Source: an uncultured Bacteriovoracaceae bacterium
GTDB taxonomy: Bacteria > Bdellovibrionota > Bacteriovoracia > Bacteriovoracales > Bacteriovoracaceae
DNA length: 58,415 nucleotides
NCBI GenBank assembly: GCA_964350135.1
Contig: CAYGJN010000001.1
Span: 110 to 58,524, forward strand
Reading direction: 5' to 3'
In this document: positions 2,936-58,415 of the stretch, in pieces
Numbering within the stretch: position 1 is the first letter of the stretch
Layout of the letters: each line of letters opens with the position of its first letter
Translations under genes and position numbers: made by a program
The notes under the pieces: model-generated
Database searches by the model: none
What the model saw: only the letters and a program-made list of their open reading frames with translations
What the model was told of the DNA's origin: nothing

Positions 2936-3915
2936 TAAGCTTTTAAAAGGTGTCTCTCAGCTTTTGTCGTGTCTGGACCAATTAGTTTATTTTTATACTT
3001 AGGTCTATACAAAGCTGCTAACCCTTCAACTCTTTCATGCGGAGTCGCAAAAGAGATAATAAGCATAACTCTAAACCCTTCTTCCACTCTCGCTCCATGA
3101 TGGAAACAATGATAGGGATTAACGAACCAAGCTGAACCTGCTTTACCGGTTAACTTTGTATAGTTCTCAGGAGAAATAAATTTTTCAATAATTTCATCTT
3201 TCACTCGACCGTCTTCATGATTTAAAGCTGTTATTATTTCTAAAGACTTCTTGGCATTAATATATGTAAATGGGCCATTTTTAGGTCCAATATCATAAAC
3301 AGGTATCACTAAATGCAAGAAGTCTGGATCAAGTGCATCTCTGTGAAACATTTGAGCATTGATTGGTGTATGCCCTTTTTCCATAGCAGGTGTATATATA
3401 AACGAAGTATTTGATAAAGTTGGAATCTGTCCCAAATAATCAGCGGCTAATCCCATAAGCTTTGGTTGAGAAGCAAATTTTAAAATAGGTTTTATAAGGG
3501 CAATTTGCTCATCACTCACTTCTTCCTGATCTTTTCCTGCAGGCTTAATTAATAATGAATAAGGAGCAACAAAAGCTTTCTCTATAGCTTCTCTGTTCGA
3601 TTCAAAATATGACCTAAGATGGGTAAGCAATTCAGGCACACCATCAAGCTCCCCTTCTGGTATTGCCAGCTCATGCTTGTTTTTAGGTACCCTAATATTA
3701 TTAAGTGCACTGGTATAAATACTAATATTTTTTGATTTAATATAAAGAACTGGTGCAGATAGTATCTTAACAAATCTTATAATGCTTAAACGTAGACTTT
3801 TTTTAATACCCAACATGCTTAGCACTTCATTAAGTAAACGCCCCAGACCTTTTTGTCTGATTTGACTGGGAACCTTCATAAAATACACAGGTAATCTTGA
3901 AACTTTAAAACTCAC
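2932..3915 (-). CDS. Putative Fe(II)/2-oxoglutarate dioxygenase (PhyH-like)
   Basis: HxD (MFHRDALD) followed about 80 aa later by CFHHGARV, then a beta-strand-like RVMLIISF. This fits a 2-His-1-carboxylate facial triad. Tentative. Confidence 0.4.
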   Translation of the reverse strand: MSFKVSRLPVYFMKVPSQIRQKGLGRLLNEVLSMLGIKKSLRLSIIRFVKILSAPVLYIKSKNISIYTSALNNIRVPKNKHELAIPEGELDGVPELLTHLRSYFESNREAIEKAFVAPYSLLIKPAGKDQEEVSDEQIALIKPILKFASQPKLMGLAADYLGQIPTLSNTSFIYTPAMEKGHTPINAQMFHRDALDPDFLHLVIPVYDIGPKNGPFTYINAKKSLEIITALNHEDGRVKDEIIEKFISPENYTKLTGKAGSAWFVNPYHCFHHGARVEEGFRVMLIISFATPHERVEGLAALYRPKYKNKLIGPDTTKAERHLLKAY

Positions 3916-4059
3916 AGCCCTCTCCTGGAAGCAAAACTAGCCTCCATACTAGCAGATGCTAATCACCCCAGAAAGCCCTCAAAACCGGGTTTTTCCTTTA
4001 TATGAGAGATTTTCCATGGTAGTTTTTTTTGTAAACTATTCCCCTACTGGAGACCCTTT

Positions 4060-53405: not shown

Positions 53406-53915
53406 TTAAGTGTAAGGATTTATATCTGTTTCATAATGCTGAGACGGAACTTGAAAAGGATCCGGGGTAGAAACTGGTTTCTGCTCATCTGCGTTATTAG
53501 TTTCATCTTGTTTAGCTTCCCAAAAAGCAGCCACTTTTTTTCTTGCGACACGGACATCTCGTTTATACCAGGTAGCGTCAAAGCCACAATGGGGACATGG
53601 GATCTCTTTTCGAAAAAGCATTTTATGAATGCCTTCATAGAGGGCCCAAATAATAAACCATGTATAAACTACTTTAAACTCCATTAGTCCCCAGAGAACT
53701 AAAGAGCTCACAATACAAAGCATAAAAATATGAAGGTAATTAAGCGCACTTAGTTTTGATTTGTATTTTAAACCTCTTTCACTGCTACAAAGAGGGCAAA
53801 GAAAATTCGTCACTGGATTTTTTATTTTATAAACACGTTTAAATAATGAATCTTGGTTCATAGACATCCTCACATTCATTTTAGCCTGAAAAAGAGATCT
53901 GAATCTAGAGAGCAA
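53406..53915 (-). CDS. Hypothetical membrane protein with two CxxC pairs flanking TM helices
   Basis: CPLCSSE and CPHCGFD on either side of LHIFMLCIVSSLVLWGL / VVYTWFIIWALY. Preferred over the overlapping plus-strand ORF 53397-53687. Confidence 0.5.
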   Translation of the reverse strand: MLSRFRSLFQAKMNVRMSMNQDSLFKRVYKIKNPVTNFLCPLCSSERGLKYKSKLSALNYLHIFMLCIVSSLVLWGLMEFKVVYTWFIIWALYEGIHKMLFRKEIPCPHCGFDATWYKRDVRVARKKVAAFWEAKQDETNNADEQKPVSTPDPFQVPSQHYETDINPYT

Positions 53916-53943: not shown

Positions 53944-55233
53944 CTACGGTACTGACCATTTGGAGGTTAGATGAGCAGATATAAGAGCAACATCCCCTGC
54001 ACTTAAAACACCATCGTAAACAAGAAGTTCTGCCACACTTCCACCAAATGGGTTTGTAGGTCCTCCACCATTATTCCAACTACCTAAATAATAGGCCCAT
54101 GTTGTCCCAGGAGTCCCAGCTGCCCCAATACCGTCTACAGACCCATTTATATATTGAGTCCCTGTAGAGAAATCACTTGAAGCCGCATGAAGATAATTTG
54201 TCGATGCAGATGCTGCAGAAGTAGCTATAACTGAGCTCGCACCGCTAAGAGTTGTAAAAAAATTTGAAGCAATGTCTTTATAAATAACAAAACGACTCGT
54301 ACCACTATCTCCACCGCCCCATACAGCTTGGGCACCCGCCAGAGTATCGTATCTATTGACGATAAAGACTGTAAGGCCACTTACACCGGAAAAGTAATTT
54401 CCATTAATTGATCCATTTGAAAGCTTATCGTTCACTCCATCAAATGTGACACCATGAAGACCTGTTCCAAAGGAGTTTTCTCCGTAAGTAGGAGCATTAG
54501 TTGCTTCTGTGTAATCGTATCCATTTCCACTTTTGTCTTTCCAGCAACCAACACTTTGAGCGTCAGCTGTCACAGGAGTTGTGGTGCAATCATTTGTTAT
54601 ATAAAGACTAGAAAGATCACTTGCATCTAACCAAACAGCAGGAGTTCCATAGTCGTATGGATTAAAATTTCCATCTCCACCAGTATCAAGATCTCCCCCT
54701 ACGCAATCAATAATTTGACTTGAAGAAATTGAACCCACTGATACAACAGCATTAAGATCGAACTCTCCGGGAGCTAGATCGAAGATGCCTTCAAAAACAA
54801 CTTGAGGTCTTCTAAAGTTTTCTTGATTGATTTCTTTAATATTTGAACAAGCAATATTTGAACCATCATCATCTTTAAATCCAAGAAGACGAATTGTTCT
54901 TTGAGCGCCGGATTTTACCAGCATTTCAAGATCATAAACCCCAGGTGATGCAACAGGAATAGTTCCACCTGAAACATTAAAGCCAAAACCACTGCCAGTA
55001 TTTACAGTACAAAACCCGTTTGGATCTTCGGGGTAATCAACTAGAATTCCAATGCAGTCAATATCACCAAGACCAGAATAAGCTGCACCGATGGCCCAGC
55101 CTGCACGATTCTCTGAGAGTTTTGAGTTATCAATTCTAAACTTAAGACGAGTGGTTTCTTCTTGAGAGCGCTCAGAGCATGTGACAAAAAGTAATGTGAA
55201 TAGAAGAAGAAATAATTTTTTCATCATATTCAT
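53944..55233 (-). CDS. Exported (possibly lipo-)protein with C-terminal LamG-like jelly-roll domain
   Basis: Signal peptide ending FVTC. WLDASD...CWKDKSGNGYDY...VTFDGVNDKL and the terminal SVAELLVYDGVLSAGDVALISAHLTSKW pattern of LamG_3 domains. Confidence 0.65.
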   Translation of the reverse strand: MNMMKKLFLLLFTLLFVTCSERSQEETTRLKFRIDNSKLSENRAGWAIGAAYSGLGDIDCIGILVDYPEDPNGFCTVNTGSGFGFNVSGGTIPVASPGVYDLEMLVKSGAQRTIRLLGFKDDDGSNIACSNIKEINQENFRRPQVVFEGIFDLAPGEFDLNAVVSVGSISSSQIIDCVGGDLDTGGDGNFNPYDYGTPAVWLDASDLSSLYITNDCTTTPVTADAQSVGCWKDKSGNGYDYTEATNAPTYGENSFGTGLHGVTFDGVNDKLSNGSINGNYFSGVSGLTVFIVNRYDTLAGAQAVWGGGDSGTSRFVIYKDIASNFFTTLSGASSVIATSAASASTNYLHAASSDFSTGTQYINGSVDGIGAAGTPGTTWAYYLGSWNNGGGPTNPFGGSVAELLVYDGVLSAGDVALISAHLTSKWSVP

Positions 55234-55260
55234 TTATTCATAAATAAAACGAAAATTCTA

Positions 55261-55410
55261 GTTGAGAGTGCCGCGCAGGCCCCTCGGCCTGCACGGTAGA
55301 CACTCGACGTGAGTGAAGAAATCTGAAGTGACGCTAATTAAGGTCGGAGGGTCGAAGCACTAACGTTCCGCTTTAAATCTCCGTTCGACCCGACGGAGCT
55401 CCAGACCCCC
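55261..55410 (-). ncRNA. GC-rich structured non-coding element (candidate cis-regulatory leader or sRNA, class unknown; strand uncertain)
   Basis: 87/150 G+C by hand count in a visibly AT-rich window, with no ORF. Several long complementary segments and two mutually exclusive pairings (see finding). Confidence 0.5.
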
Positions 55411-55521
55411 TCTATACTTCAATATCGATACCAATTCTGGACTAACTGTCAGTTCTATATTTCAATGAGTTGTAGAGAACTAGACAACACTACAGGGTCA
55501 AAACTTTGTTATAAGGTTCGA

Positions 55522-58203
55522 ATGGACACCACGCAAAAGACAAAATTAACCAAGCAGAACGGTCAAATATCTGTATTCTTAGCTGTAATCGTGGTTTTGG
55601 CCATCGCGCTTATGGCCTTTATTATCAATATTGGTATTTTTGTTAAGAGTAAAATCAATTTGCAAAACGCAGTGGACGCAGCAGCGTACTCAGGAGCGGC
55701 AGTTCAGGCACGCCAATTAACAGAGATTGGTTATATGAACTGGGAGATGAGAAATATTTATAAAGAGTGGATGTATAAATATTATGTTCTTGGTCATCTT
55801 GGTTTAACGGACACAAAAAGATCTAATATTCTTGATGGAGGAATGGATTTTAGACTTCCTCCTACTGTAACAAATGCAGGCTCAGTGCTTGCCGGTAGAG
55901 AAAATTATAACAGACAAGACCCTTTCAATATTCCATCAGTTTGTATCACTTATGCGAACTCATTTAATATTTGTGACACTTATGTTTTGCCTGGGCTTCC
56001 TCGTTTTGAATCACTTGGACTTCCAGGAATTGATGAAACACATAATGCCTTTGTTAAAAACTTAGTGGAACAAAAATCAAAAGACTGTTCATCTAGATCT
56101 AAAGTTAACTTCACCGTGGCCAGACAATGGAGTTATGGAATCTTTGATCCCAATGTAAGTGCAGCTTTACCTGCCAATGCTCCAAGAATAGCCCTTGATA
56201 AAATGGGAGCTTTTCCAAAGGCCCTAGAAGCTGCTATCCGGGTTCGTAATATGGAGAGAATTGTAAATGAGCCACCCAAGAACTCAATTGCAAGATCTGC
56301 ACAGGCTCCTATTTGTAATGAACTAGGAGGTTGTCGCCCCTTAACTGAACTTGAATCTCTTTCAGCTACCTACGATGCTCCCATTCATGAAAGAACCATT
56401 AAGGCTTTTTGGGCCGGCTACAGGAATCTTGCTAAAAGCCCTGATGGTGAGCCAAATAATATGAAAGATAATTTTGTGCTCACTGAAATCTCACCAACTC
56501 CACTAGTGGGAAATGATTTTGATTCAGAACTTTCATTTTATCTGATGAAGCAAACAACTGTTAATGGTTATAATTCAAGTGAAAAACATTATCTTGATTT
56601 AAAACCTTATCTTTTAAATCTCTCTATTTTTTATACTTTATTTGCTTCAGATGAGGGCCAAGGGGGCGCCAATACTCCTACCACACAGGCAGAATGTGGA
56701 GCCACCAAAGTTGCCATTCCTGTTCCTGGTTACCCTTTGGGTTTTGTTAAAAATCCTAATCTTGTTACTTATTATGCGGTTAAAGGTGAAACTTATTTCA
56801 CAGGTTTATTGAATCCTTTTCTTGGACCTATTCGTATGGTTGCTTATGGTGCAGCTAAGCCATTTGGTGGAAAAATTGGTCCACAAATTTTTAATACAGG
56901 CGGAACTGATATTAAGCCTCGTGAAAAATATAGTTTCTCTTATCTTTCCGGACTTAATATTCCATCTCCTAATTACAAACTAGGCTTTCCATTACCATTT
57001 GATCAAATTTTTTGGGTAGATTCAGGGACAGATAGTGTTATTGGTGGAACCCCGAGTGCATCTAGCGCTTCAACAAAGTTTGCAATTCCAAATCTTCCTT
57101 ATGATTTTACCACAAGTGGTGCCTCTGGGTTTGCCACAGGCTCTGAGTCCATGGAAAGCATTAATCAAAACACAATAGTAGGTGCTGGTGGCGCCCAAAA
57201 TATAGGTGGTCTTTATAGCCGTTCACAATTTTTTAAATTTAAAGGTAGTGATATTTTAAATACTAATCTGATAGGAGATGCAGATATTGATAAGGCCATT
57301 TATCGAATGTATGCACCTACTGGCTATGAAGCTGGAAATTATTTAATCCCCACACTTGAAAAACATAATAAAGCTCAACAAGTAAGCTCCGTGGGTTTTA
57401 TTCCATCTCTTGATAATGATAGTGCGGTTTTAAGAGAATCAGATCCATTAAAATACAATATTTACGCCCCTATCTTTGGAGATGGGTTGTTATATTCTGG
57501 ACCTGGTGATCTCAAGGACTTACTAGAGCGCTATATTAATCAAAATAAAGGGGCCATCGATCTCTATTTAAACTCTCTTAAAGAAGTAGCACAAGGCATG
57601 ATAGATCTTGATAATGCTGGAGGTGGGGGAAAATATGTAAGAGCTGCTGCAACTATTCATGAAGGAAATAATCTTACATGTAGTAGTATTGCAGGAAATT
57701 TTAGTCAGTTCTTTTTTGGTAATATTAATGCAGGATCAGATTGCCCTGAATATCTAGTATCTACAATAATAGATTATTGGCAGCAAAGAATTGGCGAGGC
57801 CGACGGGGTTTTTAAAAACTACTACAATTCTCCTTATATTGCTCCACAGGATGTAAGTGATAGTGGGGCTCCTGAAAATGATAATCAACTAGGGATAAAA
57901 AAGTATATGACTGGCTATTTACCCGGGACCAAACATGGAGCAAATCCAGATACCGGAAGCGGGCTTAACCCTTTTAGTGCAACTGGCGACACAGCAAGCC
58001 ATAGAAGAAATTTTTATTCAGTGAAGCTTATCCCATTGCAATCCTTAAGAGGAGCAGGGGCAACATCTTATCAAAACGATGGGTTTAGCCTTTATGCAGA
58101 GAGTATGAGGTCCAATTCTTACAATGGTCCTCCTGATATTCTTACTAAAAGTTTCCAAAATCCGGTTAATGACCCCCAGGAGTTAGAGGAAGTTTTTCAA
58201 TAA
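55522..58203 (+). CDS. Large TadG-like protein (N-terminal Tad_N / TadE-G-like pseudopilin-type segment)
   Basis: NGQISVFLAVIVVLAIALMAFIINIGIFVKSKINLQNAVDAAAYSGA matches the Tad_N pattern. Start at ATG 55522 (aagg upstream). The ORF-track start is 55465. Confidence 0.6.
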   Translation: MDTTQKTKLTKQNGQISVFLAVIVVLAIALMAFIINIGIFVKSKINLQNAVDAAAYSGAAVQARQLTEIGYMNWEMRNIYKEWMYKYYVLGHLGLTDTKRSNILDGGMDFRLPPTVTNAGSVLAGRENYNRQDPFNIPSVCITYANSFNICDTYVLPGLPRFESLGLPGIDETHNAFVKNLVEQKSKDCSSRSKVNFTVARQWSYGIFDPNVSAALPANAPRIALDKMGAFPKALEAAIRVRNMERIVNEPPKNSIARSAQAPICNELGGCRPLTELESLSATYDAPIHERTIKAFWAGYRNLAKSPDGEPNNMKDNFVLTEISPTPLVGNDFDSELSFYLMKQTTVNGYNSSEKHYLDLKPYLLNLSIFYTLFASDEGQGGANTPTTQAECGATKVAIPVPGYPLGFVKNPNLVTYYAVKGETYFTGLLNPFLGPIRMVAYGAAKPFGGKIGPQIFNTGGTDIKPREKYSFSYLSGLNIPSPNYKLGFPLPFDQIFWVDSGTDSVIGGTPSASSASTKFAIPNLPYDFTTSGASGFATGSESMESINQNTIVGAGGAQNIGGLYSRSQFFKFKGSDILNTNLIGDADIDKAIYRMYAPTGYEAGNYLIPTLEKHNKAQQVSSVGFIPSLDNDSAVLRESDPLKYNIYAPIFGDGLLYSGPGDLKDLLERYINQNKGAIDLYLNSLKEVAQGMIDLDNAGGGGKYVRAAATIHEGNNLTCSSIAGNFSQFFFGNINAGSDCPEYLVSTIIDYWQQRIGEADGVFKNYYNSPYIAPQDVSDSGAPENDNQLGIKKYMTGYLPGTKHGANPDTGSGLNPFSATGDTASHRRNFYSVKLIPLQSLRGAGATSYQNDGFSLYAESMRSNSYNGPPDILTKSFQNPVNDPQELEEVFQ

Positions 58204-58269: not shown

Positions 58270-58377
58270 ATGGCCCGCAAAAAGACGACAAAGAAAAAAA
58301 CGACTAAAAAGAAAGTAGCCAAGAAAAAAGCAACTAAGAAGAAAGTTGCGAAGAAGAAAGCAACTAACAACAAATGA
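58270..58377 (+). CDS. Unannotated 35-aa lysine-repeat basic protein (histone H1-tail / Hc1-like composition)
   Basis: gtgagga Shine-Dalgarno 5 nt before the ATG. Translation MARKKTTKKKTTKKKVAKKKATKKKVAKKKATNNK, stop TGA 58375-58377. Below the size cutoff of the ORF track. Confidence 0.5.
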   Translation: MARKKTTKKKTTKKKVAKKKATKKKVAKKKATNNK

Positions 58378-58415
58378 GCGAAGACGAAAGGGACTAAGAA
58401 CAAGTAGGCCGTCAA

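Follow-up and report, generated by a model that had tools for sequence, protein, structure and literature searches.

The intergenic region at 55260-55438 on the minus strand of the 58,415-nt stretch analysed here (the window) very probably encodes a member of a genuine family of structured RNAs. On balance, and with modest confidence, we regard the region as the gene for an autonomous structured small RNA (sRNA) of ~170 nt. Judged from the sequence, the likely transcript would run from ~55436 to ~55268, both of these ends being predicted positions. The family is a new one within a known kind, the bacterial structured small RNAs; no Rfam family and no report in the literature was found for it.

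The region stands out from its surroundings by composition. The first-pass annotation had counted 87 G+C among the 150 nt of 55261-55410 and found no open reading frame there, and our recount agrees; this is the highest count of all 150-nt windows (mean 53.1, sd 6.5) in a stretch whose overall G+C content is 35.4%. No open reading frame of 30 aa or more lies within 55234-55464. A long plus-strand reading frame begins at 55465, with the likely start of the TadG-like gene at 55522. A search of the whole window with Rfam 15 (4227 models) gave no match at gathering score, and 14 related loci were likewise without a match at that score. When the threshold was relaxed to E<=10 for 55150-55600, nothing meaningful appeared, just chance fragments of snoRNA and frnS models outside the core; neither c-di-GMP-I (RF01051) nor c-di-GMP-II (RF01786) was among the reported matches on either strand. 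A likeness of 'GACGCAAAG' to GEMM-I is confined to the window's own clade and is not kept family-wide. ARAGORN detected no tRNA or tmRNA in the window, and no second copy of the element was found within it. Together, the G+C peak and the lack of a reading frame, an Rfam match and a second copy indicate a genuine island that occurs once in the window and is as yet uncatalogued. A repeat of the REP/MITE type was considered and rejected, as no more than one credible copy per locus was seen across the window and 83 loci of ~10 kb; the repeat reading is also contradicted by the metagenome instances described below (at least seven), which share one genomic context. Full-text literature searches, with Bdellovibrio bacteriovorus set aside, returned no sRNA or riboswitch candidate reported for Bacteriovoracaceae, and nothing relevant was found on RNAs or transcriptomes of Bacteriovorax or Halobacteriovorax.

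Related loci were gathered via an alignment of the TadG-like protein, and one genome per species was scanned, giving 80 loci from Bacteriovoracaceae-type genomes and MAGs. Conservation of the intergenic element is already evident from the contigs that encode the nearest TadG-like relatives, LamG-less ones included. Two covariance models were built. The first, R1, was made from four seed sequences of the window's clade, the window included, and matched 34 sources (the window and 33 loci) in a single orientation throughout; on the window, itself one of the four seeds, it scored 140.5 bits at 55268-55415. The second, R2, was built from 23 sequences; of 84 sources searched, comprising the window and 83 related loci, it matched 68, and the orientation was the same in all of them. 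On the window R2 matched over the full model length at 55260-55438 on the minus strand (19.9 bits, E=1e-3), and this match delimits the whole RNA element. The genera carrying the element are Halobacteriovorax, Peredibacter and Bacteriovorax, all Bacteriovoracaceae. Among the carriers that can be grown in culture are Halobacteriovorax marinus (MAAO01000006.1; element at 3678-3855 of locus L015) and Peredibacter sp. HCB2-198 (NZ_CP174607.1; element at 3782-3951 of locus L046). The RNA sequence pattern alone retrieved at least seven further instances from metagenomes, 73 of the 80 loci listed in that scan being chance matches.

The genomic neighbourhood of the element is largely constant. In nearly all element-bearing loci it lies between p169 and the divergent TadG-like gene, and the usual order is HD-GYP (-), ssb (-), p169 (-), RNA (-), TadG-like (+). 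In the window p169 (53406-53915, minus strand) encodes a small membrane protein with CxxC...CPxC motifs and weak matches to zinc-ribbon families; it is directly downstream of the RNA on the same strand in ~85% of element-bearing loci. The TadG-like gene (55522-58203, plus strand), divergent from the RNA, encodes 893 aa with a Tad/TadE-G N-terminal domain (Pfam PF13400). Its product has 800 homologues, and those that are named come from Bacteriovoracales, Halobacteriovorax and related groups. The metagenome instances have the same gene order as far as their contigs reach (that of L091 ends before the TadG side), with p169 directly downstream in all of those listed (at least seven).

The gene directly downstream of the RNA in the window is not p169 but the gene for a LamG-like lipoprotein (53944-55233, minus strand; weak Laminin_G_3 Pfam match). 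A search for LamG homologues found just 8, all distant, and unrelated genes occupy the same spot elsewhere; LamG is therefore an insertion, specific to its lineage, that separates the RNA from p169. In eight loci (the window with LamG, L001, L002, L013, L027, L037, L045 and L076) unrelated genes for secreted proteins or lipoproteins lie between p169 and the terminal hairpin of the RNA, P1, and in four of these (L002, L013, L027 and L076) the inserted gene follows P1 directly on the opposite strand. In L056 it is the TadG side that carries an insertion. The element had originally been read as a leader or riboswitch dedicated to LamG. This is not supported, since LamG is an insertion almost without homologues and the element is conserved in the divergent p169/TadG-like intergenic region instead.

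The predicted fold rests on three helices, namely P4, a pseudoknot stem and P1. On the 70-row model alignment (1480 cells, 23 pairs) 89.9% of cells pair in these helices, compared to 64.5 ± 0.8% after shuffling, and the covariation score is 0.666 compared to 0.217, with 0 of 500 shuffles attaining 0.666. Double-sided changes occur in 23/23 pairs, and pairing falls to 30-50% when the partners are slid by 1-3 columns. RNAalifold independently finds P4 and P1.

P1 (55271-55296, minus strand) is the GC-rich 3' hairpin and reads CCGUGCAGGCC-GAGG-GGCCUGCGCGG in the RNA, with one G·U pair and a loop of the GNRG type. Across the family it measures 9-11 bp, is GC-rich and is the most strongly covarying helix of the element: its 9-bp core is 99.7% paired over 67 sequences, with double changes in 9/9 pairs. 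The tetraloop is CYNC on the plus strand family-wide, which corresponds to GNRG in the RNA. The first-pass annotation had drawn a longer hairpin here. Its inner pairings, CCG/CGG and GCAGGCC/GGCCTGC around the loop CCTC, are P1 itself, while its outer pairing of GAGTG at 55266 with CACTC at 55301 is absent in relatives. The alternative pairing that it had given for CACTC 55301-55305, with GAGTG 55311-55315, was retained: a compensatory change from ACUC/GAGU to GCUC/GAGC keeps it in the three closest relatives, which supports this pairing and not the outer one. It forms a clade-specific small hairpin (55301-55315, minus strand; RNA CACUC-ACGUC-GAGUG) in the variable region, and the A:U to G:C change is seen in L002 and L004. 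Other clades have different hairpins between core and P1, or a U/C-rich linker of ~35 nt.

P4 (55379-55398, minus strand; RNA CUCCG-UCGGGUCGAA-CGGAG) corresponds to a local hairpin that had been noticed from the start, CTCCG 55379-55383 with CGGAG 55394-55398, and this pairing is real. It is 5-8 bp long in the family and 93.9% paired, with double changes in 6/6 pairs and 41 distinct arm pairs. Its loop at 55384-55391 (GGGUCGAA) is the 5' arm of the pseudoknot. The 3' arm at 55349-55356 on the minus strand (RNA UUCGACCC) pairs with these loop bases; on the plus strand the stem is GGGTCGAA (55349-55356) with TTCGACCC (55384-55391). The earlier reading had included this stem as GGTCGAA/TTCGACC, which stands and is extended by our alignments to 55349-55356/55384-55391; the pairing stacked on it, GGTCGGAG with CTCCaGACC, occurs in the single-sequence minimum free energy fold and had no conserved counterpart that we could see in the family alignments. 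The same reading had set this stem and the P4 hairpin against each other as competitors. They instead jointly form an H-type pseudoknot that, as judged by covariation, is conserved across the family.

The signal of the pseudoknot alone is weaker than that of the whole fold, yet significant. It is 70.6% paired, compared to 61.0 ± 1.3% in shuffled data, and its own covariation score is 0.274 compared to 0.162; neither value was reached in any of 500 shuffles. The register of the stem, whose partner stretch lies ~28 nt downstream of the P4 loop, shifts between clades; when sequences are searched one by one, the stem is found in essentially all members, with a longest Watson-Crick run of 5.0 on average compared to 3.5 when the loop is shuffled. 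Across the loci there are 37 distinct arm pairs with many compensatory variants, such as CCGA/UCGG, GUCGA/UCGAC, GCCAG/CUGGC, UUCUGG/CCAGAA and UGGUGA/UCACCA, next to GGGUCGAA/UUCGACCC in the window.

Several unpaired boxes are conserved along with the helices. The loop joining the two pseudoknot stems contains an ACGUU box (55362-55366, minus strand; AACGT on the plus strand), whose ACGT (55363-55366) is invariant in the 36-sequence alignment A6 and the 23-sequence alignment A7 and nearly so in the 70-row alignment A8. Directly 3' of the pseudoknot arm is a C/U-rich tract (55342-55351, minus strand; RNA CCCUCCGACC), of which the first three bases (55349-55351) are part of that arm. The tract represents the pyrimidine box of the family, which most members have as CCUCUCC and the window as CCCUCC, and its complement on the plus strand is the conserved purine box GGrAGrGG. 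The 5' single-stranded segment (55416-55434, minus strand) holds the boxes UUGG (55434-55431) and UUG (55422-55420), which are invariant in A7 and nearly invariant in A8. By eye, UGAAGU (55421-55416) can pair with ACUUCA (55329-55324) as a candidate closing helix in several clades. Two further helices were discarded: a 5' hairpin CGUAC/GUACG of the L031 clade, the pairing of which is not kept in sister sequences, and a long-range AUUUUGG/CCAAAAU helix present in some members only, where the invariance of the 5' side leaves no covariation to test.

The first-pass annotation had also suggested an undescribed structured RNA. This was borne out, with no Rfam 15 match, a multi-helix core containing a pseudoknot and then a strong 3' hairpin, and conservation in relatives (68/84 sources) in which three helices covary strongly.

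Since every instance has the same orientation relative to both flanking genes, synteny is silent on which strand is transcribed. The base pairs themselves are more informative. In the model alignment 122 cells are G·U when read on the minus strand, compared to 25 on the plus strand, and within the P1 core the tally is 50 to 1. The P1 core is 99.7% paired on the minus strand and 91.3% on the plus strand. When the element is read on the TadG strand, otherwise perfect helices hold many A·C mismatches that are G·U pairs on the opposite strand; a strand-symmetric helix finder applied to P4 and the pseudoknot counted 27 A·C and 6 G·U in this reading. The asymmetry of G·U and A·C indicates that the RNA is read from the minus strand, in line with the reading given to it from the outset. 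Single-sequence minimum free energies and RNAalifold energies barely separate the strands (-28.8 vs -26.9 kcal/mol). The single-sequence fold z-score is -3.47 for the plus strand and -2.03 for the minus strand.

The transcription signals around the element point to a separate unit. A -10-like TNNAAT box, a Shine-Dalgarno sequence and the start codon of the downstream gene follow P1 within 27-130 nt in 52/66 loci, and in 30 of the 52 the box has a TGn extension. The window itself was not matched by this automated pattern, though a -10-like hexamer, TAGAAT, is visible at 55255-55260 on the minus strand, between P1 and the LamG start codon (55233). A T-rich tail begins within 0-2 nt of P1 in 33 of 65 unique loci (51%), compared to 14% at random positions. 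On the other side, 28 loci, element-less ones included, have a sigma-70-like motif TTGACN-N17-TAGCAT ahead of the TadG start, past the element where there is one; read in the TadG direction, the TadG promoter thus comes after the element. Collectively, the insertions, the -10 and Shine-Dalgarno boxes, the U-tracts and the TadG-side motif suggest that the RNA is a separate transcription unit between two independently promoted genes.

A candidate promoter of the RNA is located at 55439-55465 on the minus strand, with TTGAAA (55465-55460), a 17-nt spacer and GTCC (55442-55439). The arrangement TTGAAA-N17-GTCC is common to the window's own clade (the window, L001, L002 and L004), and a related TGAAA...GTCC arrangement is found upstream of the RNA in the L072-type clade. 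The motif is degenerate and differs between clades. Candidates for other promoter classes were also inspected. Several TGGC...GC motifs were rejected by eye as sigma-54 promoters, their spacing being 8 nt and not 10 nt, and GCCGATAA, upstream of P1 on the plus strand, was rejected as a sigma-28 box, as it occurs in three near-identical loci (L017, L031 and L035) with no matching -35.

We propose the following model. The RNA would be transcribed autonomously, and its promoter may be of an alternative-sigma (FliA-like) type; its gene adjoins, in divergent orientation, the promoter region of the TadG-like gene, and the p169-ssb genes downstream would be separately promoted. From 5' to 3' it would present the UUGG and UUG boxes, the H-type pseudoknot, the ACGUU loop, the C/U-rich tract, a variable hairpin or linker and P1, where the transcript would end, with a U-tract after P1 in half of the family. 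It may then act in trans, either by base-pairing of the C/U-rich tract with ribosome-binding sites or, alternatively, by binding of a protein or ligand to the pseudoknot core. The tract (CCCUCCGACC; CCUCUCC) is complementary to Shine-Dalgarno-type sequences, which suggests that it could serve as an anti-Shine-Dalgarno-like seed for translational control in trans. Also in favour of an sRNA, some members have just the ~35-nt U/C-rich linker between core and P1. The TadG mRNA was rejected as a target: when the middle part of the RNA was paired with TadG initiation regions using RNAduplex, cognate pairing was no better than non-cognate pairing (permutation p=0.88). Other observations weigh against the sRNA model. 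In half of the family, the window among them, no U-tract adjoins P1; the candidate promoter is degenerate and differs between clades; and the p169/TadG pair persists with a short spacer and without the RNA in at least 12 related genomes. A plain base-pairing sRNA would need neither a conserved P1 loop nor invariant loop nucleotides, features that would fit a protein- or ligand-binding RNA as well.

A possible but doubtful alternative is that the element is a cis-acting minus-strand leader, a riboswitch or attenuator of p169 or LamG. The core would sense a ligand or protein, and transcription would either stop at P1 or read into p169-ssb-HD-GYP (in the window, into LamG and then p169). The position of the RNA directly upstream of p169 on the same strand, in ~85% of element-bearing loci and in the metagenome matches (at least seven), is consistent with this, as are the terminator-like P1 of 51% of loci and the presence of a conserved, covarying structured domain. 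An HD-GYP gene (c-di-GMP phosphodiesterase-type) lies downstream in the same direction, and the pseudoknot holds a near-invariant unpaired ACGU; near-invariant unpaired nucleotides are typical of ligand pockets. In the window P1 and the LamG start are 38 nt apart, so that a full separate LamG promoter would overlap P1 and there is little space for one. The U-rich run noted after the hairpin in the first-pass annotation is present, but begins 14 nt after P1, overlapping the -10-like TAGAAT, and is therefore no canonical terminator tail. With no U-tract adjoining P1, some read-through into LamG is possible in the window.

These points are set against several others. The downstream gene has its own -10-like box, Shine-Dalgarno sequence and start codon after P1 in 52/66 loci, and in L002, L013, L027 and L076 a gene on the opposite strand comes right after P1. 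Some members have structured hairpins between core and P1 and others a plain U/C-rich linker, and the P1 loop is conserved beyond what a mere terminator needs. Mutually exclusive pairings had been part of the initial description of the island, yet in alignments judged by eye we saw no conserved competition between a terminator and an antiterminator pairing. The 12 or more genomes with the same gene pair and no element also argue against a leader.

A further reading, unlikely in our estimate, is that predatory bacteria have an undescribed class of riboswitch or ligand sponge whose aptamer is the pseudoknot core. Such an aptamer would respond to a signal, for instance a cyclic dinucleotide, would gate read-through of P1 into p169-ssb-HD-GYP (here LamG) or buffer the ligand, and would link signalling to the adjacent Tad-pilus-like gene. 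We give similarly little credence to a stand-alone RNA that binds rather than base-pairs, in which the pseudoknot core would be a sponge for, or partner of, a protein or small molecule. The complex and strongly conserved fold, the near-invariant unpaired bases, the conserved P1 loop and the lack of a co-evolving target pairing with the neighbouring TadG mRNA are compatible with such an RNA, and there is a precedent in an abundant gene-less riboswitch RNA of another predatory lineage (PMC3627812). On the other hand, neither c-di-GMP nor any other riboswitch family is among the reported Rfam matches, and a binding RNA is a sub-case of the sRNA explanation and not an exclusive alternative to it.

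A plus-strand element, either a 5' leader of the TadG-like mRNA or an upstream sRNA in the TadG direction, is highly improbable. In its favour are the single-sequence z-score and the first detection of the element, which was on the plus strand ahead of the TadG-like gene in every locus reached via that gene. The leader, our initial working model, was dropped on the wobble asymmetry and on the TadG promoter-like motif beyond the element, to which L056 adds ~700 nt inserted between element and TadG.

The sRNA that we favour can be compared to several known systems. MicF/ompC and OxyS/oxyR are intergenic trans-acting sRNAs with an intrinsic terminator, divergent from a linked gene. The present RNA resembles them in its size of ~170 nt, in its intergenic position, adjoining the promoter region of a neighbour that is read in the opposite direction, in its GC-rich 3' hairpin with a U-tract (in half of the members) and in a single-stranded pyrimidine-rich stretch, here a putative seed. 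In contrast, it has as its core an elaborately conserved pseudoknot in which loop nucleotides are nearly invariant, the TadG initiation region revealed no target pairing, and half of the family, the window included, lacks the terminator tail. RsaE/RoxS are sRNAs with a C-rich seed and repeated C-rich loops. The conserved unpaired C/U-rich tract (CCUCUCC; CCCUCC in the window) is likewise complementary to GGAGG, although it is a single tract and not a set of repeated loops, its pairing is predicted, and the phylum is unrelated.

H-type pseudoknots also serve as riboswitch aptamers, in SAM-II, preQ1-II, guanidine-III, fluoride and c-di-GMP-II. Like these, the present RNA has a hairpin whose loop base-pairs with a strand further 3', a connecting loop with conserved unpaired nucleotides and a position upstream of a same-strand gene, followed by a terminator-like hairpin. 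It differs in that no Rfam riboswitch family is among its matches even at E<=10, inspection of the family by eye revealed no conserved switching helix, the downstream gene has a promoter-like box of its own, and the spacer to the hairpin is long and variable.

Regulatory RNAs have been little explored in Bdellovibrio-like predators. The family described here offers a well-supported pseudoknotted RNA at a fixed locus, adjoining a Tad-pilus-type gene and upstream of ssb and HD-GYP, and an alignable candidate with a 60-plus-sequence seed alignment in which strand and helices are defined. The title of one paper implicates type IVb/Tad pili in predation (PMC5430801). If the RNA proved to be specific to the attack phase or to bind a ligand, it would provide a handle on how predators switch between phases of their life cycle.

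The closest parallels by lifestyle come from B. bacteriovorus, in which several attack-phase sRNAs and the riboswitch-containing merRNA were reported (Karunker et al. 2013, PMC3627812). Like these, the present RNA is structured, gene-less and found in a predatory bdellovibrio-like organism. It comes from the Bacteriovoracaceae lineage instead, and no sequence or Rfam relationship to the Bdellovibrio RNAs was found, the two being set apart without direct comparison to the published sRNA sequences. For merRNA, which contains a c-di-GMP riboswitch, a sponge-type role was proposed (PMC3627812); its recognisable c-di-GMP-I aptamer is absent from the present RNA. The attack-phase promoters of B. bacteriovorus, including those of some of its sRNAs, have the FliA-type consensus TTAAG-N16-CCGATA (PMC3627812). 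L070 and L083 carry TGAAA-N16-CCGAT(A/G) at the position equivalent to the candidate promoter of the window, and this likeness in a subset of members is a lead towards a possible alternative-sigma (FliA-like) promoter of the RNA.

The small membrane-protein gene p169 (53406-53915, minus strand), which lies downstream of the structured RNA, is kept across the Bacteriovoracaceae and is found upstream of ssb in nearly all of the loci examined. Its small product has two CxxC/CPxC motifs on either side of two predicted membrane helices, and no Pfam family was found for it. The interval that separates P1, the GC-rich 3' hairpin of the RNA (55271-55296, minus strand), from p169 is a hot spot for insertions; it corresponds to 55234-55260 in the window and, in loci L006-L085, to the 27-130 nt that follow P1 on the p169 strand. 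Unrelated signal-peptide, lipoprotein or membrane-protein genes occupy this spot in eight loci, with both orientations seen. The window's own gene at this spot is the lipoprotein-like LamG gene (53944-55233, minus strand).

On the other side of the RNA, the divergent TadG-like gene (55522-58203, plus strand) is preceded in 28 loci by a strikingly invariant promoter-like motif, TTGACN-N17-TAGCAT, which lies 34-139 nt ahead of the gene's start (L008, L014, L029, L033, L057, L060, L068, L072 and others). The fixed G and C of its -10 hexamer, TAGCAT, are unusual. The motif was found in loci both with and without the RNA. In the window clade, the corresponding position (window 55470-55498) reads TTGTAG-N17-CAGGGT. 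The control region shared by the RNA and the TadG-like gene also holds two or three copies of TAGGACCA-like boxes, as direct or inverted repeats, in the stretch from the 5' end of the RNA to the promoter of TadG in L053, L070, L072, L076, L077, L082, L083 and L085; the box in the window is TGGAC (55438-55442). These boxes may serve as a site for a transcription factor, or they may belong to the -10 region of the RNA. Among the loci examined, only L056 has the RNA separated from the TadG-like gene, by an insert of ~700 nt (L056 3304-4001) that is coding-looking and of much higher GC.

Repeats were also observed at both ends of the window. A perfect 55-nt direct repeat stands at the very start (1-55 and 169-223, spacing 168 nt). 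Near the end, at 58291-58380, three tandem copies of a AAGAAAAAAACGACTAAAAAGAAAGTAGCC-like 30-nt unit, 73-100% identical, look like a lysine-rich coding repeat.
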